64,000 nucleotides of DNA from Longimicrobiales bacterium. Lineage in GTDB: Bacteria; Gemmatimonadota; Gemmatimonadetes; Longimicrobiales; Gaopeijiaceae. The notes below the pieces were generated by a model that ran no database searches, had not been told where the DNA came from, and worked only from the letters and a program-made list of their open reading frames with translations. Each line of letters opens with the position of its first letter. Positions within the stretch are counted from its first letter, which is position 1. This document shows, piece after piece, positions 15,429 to 25,314 of this stretch. The DNA is taken from the NCBI GenBank assembly GCA_965115975.1, contig OZ220468.1, forward strand, positions 629,060 to 693,059, in the 5' to 3' direction. The position numbers and the translations under genes are program-made.

Positions 15429-18400
15429 CTATCGGCTCCCCGAGCTCAAGGCCGCGAGCGTCACCTTGGGGCCAGTCTTCCATGGCGTGTCGCCGCCGCT
15501 CTGTCTGGCTTCGATCCACATGACGATCTCCTTCTTGAGATCCACATGGGTAAGAGTCAATGGGGTGCCGGACGCGGTTCGGAACCGGCCGTAGTTCGTG
15601 GTCGTCGTGACGGGCCACGCGAGCACCTGCCTCTTGTCCCAGGCGTCCGTGCCGCTAGTCTCGTGATACAGCGTGCTCTTCGCGCCGCCCAGCGCCGCGA
15701 CGGTCAGCTGCCAGACGATCCGCTGATGCGACCTCTCGTTCGTCGTGGCGACCCAGTCGAGGGTGATCGTGTCGTTGTTCGCGCTGCGACGCGCCTTGAT
15801 CGACCTCGTCACGGGGTCGATCGCCGGCACTTGCACGTACAGCGTGTCGCCCGCCACCGTCGTGGTGCGGTCGCGCGGGTTGGTCCTCGCGTGGACTTCC
15901 ACCCAGAGCGTGAACGTGTCGTCCGGGAAATCCAGCGTGCTGCGCCGCGCCGACCGAAGGAAGTACCCCTTTTTCGTCCAATCGGCTTGGGTGCTGGTTC
16001 CCATGTCCTTCGAGTCCAGGAACAGGGGGCTGGCGTTGTTGATCGAGTCGCCCTGCATGTAGTAGAAGAAGACCGCGGGTCGGGTGCCGGTGCCGGGCGG
16101 CATTCCGTAGTTCCGTCCGGCCACGAGCTCGCGGCTGAAGTACCGCACGATGACGTCGTCCGGCTGCTTGTGAACGGCGATGGAATCCCTGACCTCGTTG
16201 GCGACGCTGTCCACCGTCGCCCGGGCCCGCTCGGCGGCGAGGTCCAGGAACAGCCAGGTGTTCGCCTGGATTCTGCCGAAGTCCCTGCGCTGTCCGGGAG
16301 CCAGCGAGACCCGCTGGTTGTCGTTCGGATAGTCGAAGCCGTGGAACACGTCCTTCGTCGCCACGACGTCGTAGTCGCCGAACGGGAGCTTGAGCGTGAA
16401 GATTCCCGCCGCGCCCGTCGTCGTGGAGTCCAGGACCATGGTCGTGTCGCTGGCTTTCCGCGCCTTGATCGTGACCCCGGAGTAGGGTCCGTCGCCCTGA
16501 GGCCGAACGACCCGACCGGTGATCGTCGCCTTCAGGAACCCGGTGAAGTTGGCGCCCGAGATGTCGGTGCCGGACGTCGCGGGCAGCGGCAGCGAAGCCG
16601 GCGCGAAAGTGTAGTCGGCGTGCTTGGCCGTGATCGCGACCGTGCCCGACGACTTGGCGTTCCACTGCGCGCGGAACGTCCCGTCGGCAGCCGTCAAAAG
16701 CTTGCCCTTGTTCGCCCCGCTCTTGGGCGCGTTGGTCGGGACCGAGTCGTCGATCATGATCTCGGCGCCGGCGATCGGCGCGTTCGAGCCCGAAGCCACC
16801 ACCTTGCCGCTGTAGAACACCGGGTCGCCCGAACCGCCCATCGCGAAGTCGATCCGAGTCGGCGAGTTGGCCGTGAACGCCGCCTTCCCGCTGCCGTCCG
16901 AGAAGCCCTTGCGCATCCCCTTCGCGTACAGCGAGTCCTTCTTCGCCGGTACGCCTTCCACGATGTAGCGACCGTACATGTCGGTCATCGCCGTCATGCC
17001 GTTCACGTCGACCATTACGCTGTCCACGGGGAACTTGTCCGAGCCCGTGACGAAGCCGTAGACGGTGGTCGTCGTCGGCGTCACGTCGATCATGACGGCC
17101 GTGTCCAGCGGACTGAACGCGTCGCCGAGCTTCGTCGTCGAGCCCTTCGCGCCCAGCATCGCCTGCCAGCCCGCCGGGACGGCCAGCTTGTAGACGCCGG
17201 CCGCGATCTTCCCGAAGTCGAACGCGTTGCGGTCGTCCCAGGTCGTGGCCTTGGCGTTCGCCTTGGCCGTCGTCTGGCTGTGCTCCATGCCGGCCAGGTT
17301 CTTGCCCGCGACGGGCGTCAGGCCGACCGTCACGCCGGCGACGGGCGTCTCGCTCACGGCGCCGAAGCCCTCGCCGGACTTTTTGATCGACTTCTTCCCG
17401 ATCGTCCCGCTGACGCCGTGCTTCATGACGTAGGCGAAGGTGCCGCACTCGCCGAAGTCCTGGCCGGCGGGCTCCGTCGCCGTCAACGGACAGAGCTCGA
17501 CCATCGGGCTGAACCCGCCGTGATCGCCGAACGCGCCCTTCACGATCCCGTTCGCGTCAGCGTCGCGGAACGCGAAGAGCTCGGCGGGATCGAGCAGCAT
17601 CACGTCCGTGGCCGTCGACTTCTCCTTGGCCGAGACCATCACCTGCGCGTCGGCCGGCAGCTTCTTGAACGCGATCACGCCGTTCTTGTCCGACTTGTTC
17701 TTCGGGTCCCAGACGTCGCTCGCGAACATGCGGCTGCGGCCGAGCTCGTCGATGTAGCGCACGTCGACGTCGATCTTGCCCGACATGCGTTCGTCGCCCC
17801 CGAGGACGCTGCCGGTGTAGCCCTCGGCCTGGTCCATCTCGTGGTGCACGTAGACGGTGAGCGTCTGCGTCGTCCACATCGCCTCGAGCACGTCGGCGTC
17901 CATCGTCGCCATCAACTCGAGGCCCGAGTGCTCGATCGTGACGGGCGTCGAGCTGAACGTCTCGCCGCCGTCGAGCTTGTCGACCTGAGTCGAGTCGAGC
18001 ATGACGGTGTACATGGCGGGCAGATCGGAGGCCATGGCCGTGGTCTTGAACATGGCCGTGCCGTCGGCGCCGAGCTTCGTCGGCGCGCCGTCGACGGCCT
18101 TGCTGCCCATCGTGACGGAGATGGCCCAGTCGGCGAGCGGCTTGCCGCCGCCCATGTCGGTCATGACGGTAGCGCCCGAGATCTTGGCGTCGACCATGAG
18201 GTTGAGGACGTCGAAGTCGTTCATGGCCATGGCCATCTTCGATTTCGCGTTCCACTCGATCTTCTGCATGGCGTCGGCTTCGACGGTGTAGTCGTCGCTC
18301 GAGACCGAAGCGTAGACCATCGAGCCGGTGGCCATCGAGCGGGCGAAGCGGATCGAAGCCATGCCGTCGTCGTCCGCGTCGGCCGAGGCGATCTTCGAGT

Positions 18401-25314: not shown

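Follow-up and report, generated by a model that had tools for sequence, protein, structure and literature searches.

Two giant genes, here called A and B, lie next to each other on the minus strand of a 64-kb stretch (the window) of contig OZ220468.1 from a Longimicrobiales bacterium of the phylum Gemmatimonadota. We find that this tandem pair belongs to a larger family, whose members, at least 16 in number, are dispersed over a single 3.06-Mb chromosome. The long N-terminal stalks of the encoded proteins, predicted to be lipoproteins, appear to have been homogenised within the genome by repeated gene conversion, and the C-terminal tips appear to fall into classes of greater age. Before both A and B lie a sigma-54 promoter, a palindromic candidate enhancer and, between the two, an unusually long run of C residues. 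The account that best accommodates these features is that of a repertoire of surface proteins, switched by slippage in the length of the poly-C tract, in which stalks recombine and tips endure; we lean towards it, if modestly.

Gene A occupies positions 15429..19967 (minus strand), encodes 1512 amino acids and corresponds to database protein P0001 (100% match); gene B (20527..25314, minus strand) encodes 1595 amino acids and corresponds to P0121. The window has a G+C content of ~70% and long open reading frames (ORFs) hence arise in many frames, but G+C at the third codon position (GC3), at 0.93 in A and 0.91 in B, marks the two minus-strand ORFs as real. A plus-strand ORF of 1505 codons antisense to A (15546..20063) was set aside as a high-GC artefact, as judged from its codon-position G+C and its Arg/Gly/Val-rich translation. 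Each gene has the same ribosome-binding site, GGAGAG, read from the sequence 8 nt before the ATG (19976..19981 for A and 25323–25328 for B, minus strand).

A and B are colinear at an offset of +5347 nt, without an indel, over a block that starts 118 nt before the ATG and extends to about codon 1205. Identity at this offset is 0.73–1.00 inside about 16350–20085 and drops to background (0.24–0.33) outside; it peaks at 0.96–1.00 between 17100 and 18400 and ranges from 0.84 to 0.97 towards the 5′ end. The block from 16345 to 20085 contains 291 differences in 3741 nt, again with no indel, and these are far from evenly spread: their density runs from 4 per 374 nt near 17841–18214 to as many as 73 per 374 nt near the 3′ edge. 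The longest stretch free of differences measures 233 nt (17791–18023), against a mean of 77 when the 291 differences are placed at random along the 3741 nt, and none of 5000 such permutations reached 233. Synonymous divergence (pS) is 0.07–0.30 over codons 1–500, 0–0.12 over codons 551–950 and 0.16–0.46 over codons 951–1200. Since synonymous divergence is thus also uneven, the identity gradient reflects the history of recombination and not protein constraint alone.

At the protein level A and B are 75% identical overall by BLASTP, and of the 111 gap positions almost all fall beyond residue 1205. A preliminary description of the locus had reported two giant same-strand genes that run colinear at an offset of 5,347 nt, share an N-terminal stalk, differ at the C-terminal end and diverge unevenly along their length. 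All of this is borne out, by the identity profile, by BLASTP and by the permutation result. The same description held the last ~300–400 codons to be barely alignable. The divergence is real and the alignment needs many gaps, yet over the 300–390 residues after residue ~1205 the two proteins are still about 40% identical and have the last FN3-like domain in common; homology is recognisable.

A homologue search returned A and 14 other proteins (72–90% identical, 1510–1563 amino acids) from the same closed contig of 3,064,649 bp, on which B also lies. The family occupies about 74 kb, or about 2.4% of the genome, and because so much of the genome is devoted to it, it must matter to the cell. The locus had been taken for a two-gene system, which it is not; nor is the second copy a product of assembly, a concern raised at the same time, as the two copies differ at 291 sites, carry different tips and share a closed contig with 14 further diverged paralogs. 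Other closed contigs carry sets of their own: at least seven members on a contig of 3,424,554 bp (about 58% identical to A) and at least nine on one of 3,708,785 bp (45–55%). In the set of species representatives, related loci come almost entirely from metagenome-assembled genomes (MAGs) of Longimicrobiales and other Gemmatimonadota. Several of these MAGs bear sponge-type metagenome bin names and may be of sponge origin.

Within the genome the stalks (residues 26–1150) are 87–95% identical, with that of A 93% identical to that of B, whereas the tips are 30–59% identical (42% for A and B). The pair A and P0002 reverses the pattern: their tips are 99% identical and their stalks only 87%. From one 100-residue segment to the next the nearest stalk relative of A almost always changes, and it is rarely B; along the protein it passes from P0013 to P0121/P0007, P0009/P0003, P0004, P0010/P0007 and P0005, and then through P0003, P0121/P0009, P0007, P0006, P0013 and P0002. 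Non-uniform synonymous divergence, long identical runs and mosaic nearest relatives together argue for gene conversion of the stalk, and as a pattern in the sequences we regard a family with concerted stalk evolution as highly probable.

The history of the tips appears to be different. When the tips were compared with a set of 121 homologues by local BLAST, six classes had close counterparts (70–85% identical) in the 3.7-Mb genome, the stalks of which are only about 48% identical to those considered here. The tip shared by A and P0002 is closest to that of P0024 (79%; 75–79% for the tip of A), the tip of P0003 to that of P0033 (85%), P0004 to P0030 (77%), P0005 to P0032 (70%), P0008 also to P0032 (78%) and P0011 to P0065 (79%). 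The tip of B belongs to a class common to P0010, P0012, P0013 and P0015 (47–49% identical), and for this class no close foreign counterpart was found among the 121 homologues (32–37%). Because tips are better conserved than stalks across genomes, the tip classes would seem to be older than the homogenisation of the stalks; identities of 70–85% may reflect slow evolution of the tips or transfer between species. The preliminary description had proposed gene conversion of the stalk together with diversifying tips: the first part stands on the pS profile, the identical runs and the mosaic, and the second gives way to six old, conserved classes.

These comparisons also bear on the simplest account of A and B, a recent tandem duplication followed by rapid divergence of the C-terminal ends under diversifying selection. 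The two are neighbours in the same orientation and run colinear for 3.7 kb without indels, and the ratio of non-synonymous to synonymous divergence (pN/pS) climbs towards the tip, all of which a duplication would explain. It would leave unexplained that 14 further paralogs share the stalk at 87–95%, that the closest stalk relative of A shifts by segment and is rarely B, that A and P0002 combine tips 99% identical with stalks 87% identical, and that tip classes conserved at 70–85% where stalks stand at 48% must be older than the similarity of the stalks. We consider this explanation highly improbable.

The preliminary description left out the regulatory anatomy that precedes each gene. The sequence TGGCAC-N5-TTGC occurs twice in the 64 kb, once before each gene, where 0.03 occurrences are expected. 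Both matches are to the perfect consensus of a sigma-54 (−24/−12) promoter: TGGCACCGAATTTGC at 20029..20043 for A and TGGCACCAATTTTGC at 25376..25390 for B, each on the minus strand. The strict motif is found once in each of 14 related loci, always on the coding strand and 90–240 nt upstream of the gene match; in relaxed form it is present in 17 of 25 related loci. No sigma-70-like promoter was found by a scan of 15150–25700, and terminator-like sites in the same interval are no commoner than in shuffled sequence.

Farther upstream lies a palindrome, (G)TCAGAAATCTGA(C), presumed to be the binding site of an enhancer-binding activator. There is one copy before A (GTCAGAAATCTGAC, 20149..20162, minus strand), a candidate upstream activating sequence with its centre 113 nt from the −24 GG, and two before B (CAGTAATCTGAC and CAGCAATCTGAC, within 25459..25489, minus strand), whose centres precede the −24 GG by 76 and 95 nt, the spacing found throughout the order. 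The promoter region of B thus reaches 25489, beyond the end of the interval first described. More distant Longimicrobiales have one or two copies of a related motif, TC(A/G)GAAATC(T/C)G, upstream of the sigma-54 motif. Over 573 kb of related loci, the density of the palindrome motif is 9.9 per kb at 60–140 nt upstream of sigma-54 motifs and 0.084 elsewhere, an enrichment of about 117-fold. In genomes without poly-C the distal palindrome stands 93–97 nt from the −24 GG and the second copy at 71–74 nt.

Taken together, the motifs and their arrangement make a design of sigma-54 promoter plus enhancer very probable, and their distribution suggests that it is ancestral to the family, with its geometry conserved. 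If the account we favour is correct, and our leaning here is again slight, every copy would form a transcription unit with a promoter of its own.

Only two homopolymers in the window reach a length of 8 nt, and both lie between promoter and palindrome: a run of 33 C residues before A (20086..20118) and a poly-C tract of 22 nt before B (25433..25454), each on the coding (minus) strand. Each tract is followed downstream by a 43-nt A+T-rich stretch and then by the sigma-54 promoter. For A this segment (20044..20085, minus strand; 67% A+T) includes a conserved TRTAAM box and is a candidate site for bending or for integration host factor (IHF). The IHF match in A is weak (two mismatches); a scan with the IHF consensus gave a perfect match in one of 10 promoters and four more matches at the same position in a sister genome with two mismatches. 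The homology of the 118-nt leaders of A and B stops exactly at the tract.

The sister genome has the same arrangement in all eight of its family copies read: palindrome, spacer, poly-C, a TRTAAM box in A+T-rich DNA, and GGCAC-N5-TTGC. Here homology between copies starts abruptly at the palindrome and runs through the tract, which indicates that the regulatory module belongs to the repeated unit. Tract lengths in the sister genome range from 11 to 26 nt, and all 10 promoters read in the two genomes have the tract at the same position. An artefact of assembly is very unlikely, because that position recurs in 11 promoters of two independent assemblies. More distant relatives have promoter and enhancer with no poly-C, and in L001, the nearest of the species representatives, the corresponding position is occupied by C8; the tract would therefore seem to be a lineage-specific addition in the window genome and its sister.

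What is held constant in these promoters is the distance between the palindrome centre and the −24 GG more than the length of the tract. In the window, A combines a tract of 33 nt with a distance of 113 nt, and B one of 22 nt with a distance of 95 nt (the second copy being at 76 nt). In the sister genome the corresponding values are 11 and 94 nt (L031), 13 and 93 nt (first gene of L033), 24 and 105 nt (second gene of L033), 13 and 94 nt (L034), 18 and 95 nt (L035), 13 and 93 nt (L156), 20 and 111 nt (L157) and 26 and 118 nt (L158). The distance is thus 93–95 nt in six of the 10 promoters, 105 nt (+11, one helical turn) in one, and 111, 113 and 118 nt in the remaining three, which are out of register. 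At the six promoters with 93–95 nt, tracts vary from 11 to 22 nt and the adjoining spacer compensates. An earlier notion that tracts come in multiples of 11 (11, 22, 33) was dropped once further copies proved to measure 13, 18, 20, 24 and 26 nt; the total distance describes the promoters better.

Between palindrome and poly-C, two types of spacer sequence occur. One (…CTTTACAAAYGGTGGGGAGT) is common to gene A (20119–20148) and the sister copy L157, and the other (…GGTTCTTCAAATTTCG) is found in most sister-genome copies; the two constitute a polymorphism of the promoter module that is shared across species.

The spacing data bear directly on the possibility that the tract is neutral, slippage-prone filler, with the activator signal alone governing expression of an environmentally regulated set of genes. 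Sigma-54 activators are generally known to work from variable distances, relatives exist that have no tract, and the three promoters that depart from standard spacing belong to genes with no sign of decay. On the other hand, the distance from palindrome to promoter is held at 93–97 nt across genera, and six of the 10 tract-bearing promoters keep 93–95 nt by compensation in the spacer, which points to selection on a geometry that the tract could then disturb. Moreover, a homopolymer of 20–33 nt would not be expected to persist at one position in every copy of two species. We judge neutral filler to be rather unlikely.

Alternatively, the poly-C/poly-G run might serve as a hot spot for recombination: a G-quadruplex (G4) or i-motif would stall replication and initiate gene conversion, in the manner of the G4 element that precedes pilE in Neisseria, with no part in transcriptional switching. 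A run of 22–33 G can in principle form a G4, as is generally known, gene conversion in the family is strong, and in the window the homology of A and B ends precisely at the tract. In the sister genome, by contrast, homology continues through the tract to the palindrome; relatives that have no tract nonetheless carry several family copies per genome; and a module with C15 stands before the gene of an unrelated small lipoprotein, for which no conversion partners exist. As the sole function of the tract this is improbable, although the roles of hot spot and switch need not be mutually exclusive.

The last-mentioned module was encountered in the sister genome (L034, 7665–8395), where palindrome, C15 and a sigma-54-like promoter precede a gene for a predicted lipoprotein of 149 amino acids (MKLRKLAVVAGVAMTQGAC...). 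As the module is found before this gene too, it defines a small regulon that extends beyond the giant family. A further variant occurs in the 3.7-Mb genome (L032, 9088–9595): an enhancer pair and sigma-54-like promoter, with no poly-C, about 760 nt upstream of the gene for P0024, the long leader of which contains an octanucleotide repeat, (GCCAGCCC)x12. In another Longimicrobiales (OZ244873.1), coding-strand G runs of 9, 5 and 6 nt lie just after the enhancer (L016, 5851–5859, and also L014 and L021) and may be an independent, short variable tract. A scan of metagenomes for C10-N(40-56)-GGCAY-N5-TTGC gave at least 120 stretches; among the matches listed there was neither a family member nor a palindrome, and we attribute them to chance.

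Long G/C tracts also sit in other switch-like loci of the lineage, as indicated in the sister genome by a C5 DNA methyltransferase gene whose reading frame is shifted by a G26 run (ERZ25068685 ctg6972; L156, 104–129). One frame holds the N-terminal motifs; beyond a poly-Gly stretch, another frame continues with the catalytic SPC motif. The gene, a candidate for phase variation, adjoins GIY-YIG and Mrr restriction-type genes. The small-lipoprotein C15 module and the G26 methylase both support a switch-prone lifestyle in the lineage.

How might the tract act as a switch? Long G/C homopolymers slip at high rates, and sigma-54 activators bound near the promoter need to be on the correct face of the helix, as with NifA at nifH and NtrC at glnAp2. 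We suggest that slipped-strand mispairing would add C residues to the tract or remove them, and that each change in length would alter both the distance and the rotational phase between activator and polymerase. Each copy would thereby move into or out of productive geometry, turning on or off at random, and a clonal population would display changing combinations of tips. As the window stands, B, with two palindromes at 95 and 76 nt, would be in standard geometry, and A, with a single palindrome at 113 nt, out of register. We rate poly-C-driven switching as an even prospect. Its most specific form, a rotary switch in which a slip of one base turns the activator by about 34 degrees and about 16 genes flip independently, we advance more tentatively, as a possibility that falls somewhat short of even. 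In two respects the family resembles contingency loci: it has long homopolymers in promoters, and the lengths of these vary among 10 homologous promoters, the comparison being between paralogs and not within a population.

Several considerations weigh against a switchable repertoire. The differences in tract length, taken as they are between paralogs, speak for instability over evolutionary time only, and slippage within a population is our extrapolation from them; the exact lengths of homopolymers of 20–33 nt are uncertain in long-read assemblies. The regulatory elements were read at two of the 16 promoters of this genome (A and B) and at eight family genes of the sister genome. The proposed dependence of activity on tract length derives from the conserved 93–97-nt geometry, and some sigma-54 enhancers tolerate a change of distance. 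Since the distant relatives that have no poly-C keep promoter and enhancer, the tract is not needed for the basic regulation of the family. Within the 64-kb window there is neither an rpoN gene nor a gene for an enhancer-binding protein, the presumed activator. Finally, exposure of the products at the surface is deduced from features of their sequences.

These features begin at the N-terminus. Gene A opens with a signal peptide and lipobox (19899..19967, minus strand) in which MDTTKKRLLAGALALLSLATIA is followed by the Cys and then by an acidic, Pro-rich tether, GEDVAPPPPTG. In both A and B a basic N-terminus and a hydrophobic core lead to ...IAC and the same tether. A PROSITE-type lipoprotein rule, {DERK}(6)-[LIVMFWSTAG](2)-[LIVMFYSTAGCQ]-[AGS]-C, is matched by 16 of 16 paralogs of this genome, and a lipobox with acidic residues after the Cys (EEA, GED, DEG, EEG, EET) is present in 101 of the 121 homologues. 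The Pfam family CarboxypepD_reg (PF13620) matches eight stretches of A (E 9e-54, 180.2 bits) and seven of B (E 8e-51, 170.7 bits), against a cutoff of 32.3; further matches in A and B are to SdrD_B and SpaA-type domains. The lipoprotein signals and CarboxypepD_reg repeats of the preliminary description are thereby confirmed. Past the last CarboxypepD_reg repeat a Pfam search of the tips returned nothing, and no adhesin-specific domain was found.

The stalk of A (16353..19898, minus strand; residues 24 to about 1205), which coincides with the block of concerted evolution, consists of CarboxypepD_reg/transthyretin-like repeats followed by pilin-like beta-sandwich domains. The tips are variable C-terminal modules, in A of FN3-like/Ig-like sandwiches (15432..16352, minus strand; residues about 1206–1512) and in B longer (20530..21699, minus strand; residues about 1206–1595). 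AlphaFold models of the product of A, built on alignments of 58 sequences, are wholly strings of beta-sandwiches, both for residues 381–1140 (predicted local distance difference test score, pLDDT, 86.4) and for the tip, residues 1141–1512 (pLDDT 85.5); stalk and tip would thus share one kind of fold. Among solved structures the middle region matches the TIE protein of B. anthracis, Gram-positive pilins and SdrD, and the tip matches the BcpA pilin, IL-12/23 p40, EpoR and other FN3 tandems; the archaeal S-layer protein SlaB is also among the fold matches. The low TM-scores are what one would expect of flexible rods with many domains, and sequence identity is 9–14%. A sequence search of solved structures gave only a weak match to a NOMO2 repeat.

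The models predict that the product of A is a rod of about 15 beta-sandwich domains, tethered at its N-terminus and carrying two or three FN3/Ig-like domains at its end. The central stalk is rich in Met: residues 301–700 of A (about 17868–19067 in the window) and the same region of B have 5–10 Met per 100 residues, the overall Met content is 3.8%, against 0.7–3.4% for a sample of 12 other proteins from across the window, and in paralogs P0002 and P0015 most Met residues of the same segment are replaced.

In neither A nor B is there an LPXTG motif or a hydrophobic stretch outside the signal peptide, so a sortase-anchored pilin or MSCRAMM, which would have LPXTG with a hydrophobic tail, is ruled out. 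To judge from features of the sequence, the N-terminal lipid most likely holds the rod in the outer membrane, with the protein exposed at the cell surface. In Bacteroidota, a group of a related superphylum whose SusD proteins are lipoproteins of the surface, an acidic surface-export signal follows the lipidated Cys (PMC5080379), and SusC/D-type loci are reported to be widespread in Gemmatimonadota (PMC10469786). Because the acidic residues after the Cys resemble the Bacteroidota signal and SusC/D loci are reported from the phylum, surface display is a reasonable proposition, even though the residues here (C-G/E/D-E-D/E/A and a proline run) differ from C-X-K-(D/E)2 or SDDDD. We consider it probable that members of the family are surface lipoproteins, and a role as adhesin or receptor-binder is plausible.

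A lipobox does not by itself specify exposure at the surface, and the family might instead comprise periplasmic or structural lipoproteins of the envelope (an S-layer-like coat or a spacer), with tips that contact different envelope partners. The appearance of SlaB among the fold matches and the failure of Pfam to find an adhesin-specific domain would both fit. A rod of about 15 domains, however, is too long for the periplasm, 16 alternative tips under individual switch-like promoters are better suited to a variable external interface, and the resemblance of the acidic residues to an export signal (PMC5080379) again argues for the outside. We therefore think an envelope-bound role unlikely.

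In their logic the closest analogues of a repertoire switched in this manner would seem to be the Vlp lipoproteins of Mycoplasma and the C-stretch promoters of the Bordetella fim genes. Like the family described here, Vlp comprises several lipoprotein genes per genome whose 5′ regions are highly conserved and whose C-terminal portions, at the surface, diverge, and each gene has its own promoter with a homopolymer, which results in independent, combinatorial on/off expression. In Vlp, however, the tract is poly-A and separates the −35 from the −10 element of a sigma-70-type promoter, and the small proteins have C-termini made of tandem repeats. In the present family 11–33 C residues lie between enhancer and sigma-54 promoter, the products are beta-sandwich rods of 1,500 residues, and the organism, a diderm, belongs to an unrelated phylum. 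The locus is not of Vlp type: it shows no sigma-70-like promoter, its tract is upstream of a sigma-54 promoter, and its tips are globular beta-sandwiches. The variable lipoproteins of Mycoplasma hyorhinis are named in a review of phase variation (PMC11868660).

In Bordetella fim2, fim3 and fimX, a poly-C stretch of 7–22 nt between activator region and promoter core controls transcription of alternative surface structures (PMC1891110). The promoters concerned are BvgA-activated and of the sigma-70 type, and the tract sets the distance from the activator to the −10 element (PMC1891110). Here the promoter is of the sigma-54 (−24/−12) class, the activator site stands at a distance of about 94 nt, and the tracts exceed those of Bordetella in length. 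The locus is thus set apart from both Vlp and fim by sigma-54 and a distant enhancer, by tract length, by protein architecture and by phylum.

The promoter design itself recalls nifH with NifA and glnAp2 with NtrC: TGGCAC-N5-TTGC, palindromic activator sites, often two, about 80–150 nt upstream, and between the sites an A+T-rich segment that could bend DNA. We know of no case in which a hypermutable repeat separates a sigma-54 promoter from its enhancer, and in the literature searched neither the family nor a repeat tract so placed was described.

Two further systems invite comparison. As in pilE/pilS of Neisseria, gene conversion operates among many partly homologous copies of a surface-protein gene, and a G-rich, structure-forming element lies upstream. 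In Neisseria a single locus is expressed and the silent cassettes lack promoters, whereas in the present family none of the copies seen is incomplete, each having a promoter, a ribosome-binding site and a signal peptide of its own, and homogenisation affects the conserved part, not the variable one: A, B and eight of eight sister copies are full length with their own promoter modules, and the other 14 paralogs have complete signal peptides. Gram-positive pilins, the B repeats of SdrD and TIE proteins have a comparable stalk of CnaB-like, transthyretin-like and Ig-like sandwiches, but given the absence of LPXTG and identities of 9–14% the resemblance is one of fold only.

The tips could not be assigned to a diversity-generating retroelement either: they differ throughout, and not at a template-like patch, and the two reverse transcriptases of the window carry group II maturase domains and lie inside Rfam matches to group II introns. 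These introns are two exact tandem copies of 2009 bp (35828–37836 and 37852–39860, plus strand) with 15 nt between them; each has Rfam matches to D1–D4 and domain V/VI and an ORF for a reverse transcriptase/maturase of 427 amino acids (36394–37677 and 38418–39701). A helix-turn-helix transposase-like gene follows at 39913–41223.

The immediate neighbours of the pair are ordinary chromosomal genes: upstream of B a gene for a DUF2911 protein (25638–26372, minus strand) and downstream of A a convergent gene of the S9 prolyl-oligopeptidase family (12517–15189, plus strand). Farther to the left are ffh, rplS, rnhB and a tRNA gene (11161–11233). At 56816–63168 (plus strand) there are three tandem paralogous genes for proteins of about 590–607 amino acids with a Peptidase_M66 domain; in the sister genome, giant M66-related LRR proteins adjoin family members (L031, 15020–19639; L156, 4858–9363).

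Repeat-driven phase variation and variable surface repertoires are known almost wholly from host-adapted pathogens, where they operate through sigma-70 promoters or reading frames. If the account favoured here is true, the family would represent a new mechanism of phase variation, in which a repeat tunes the geometry of a sigma-54 enhancer and its promoter and so combines signal-dependent activation with stochastic choice of copy. It would also place a large contingency repertoire in an uncultured, non-pathogenic and possibly sponge-associated member of the Gemmatimonadota, beside the frameshift-switchable methylase of its sister. The combination of homogenised stalks with tip classes kept across species would point to specific and durable ligands, and not to an arms race at the tip.

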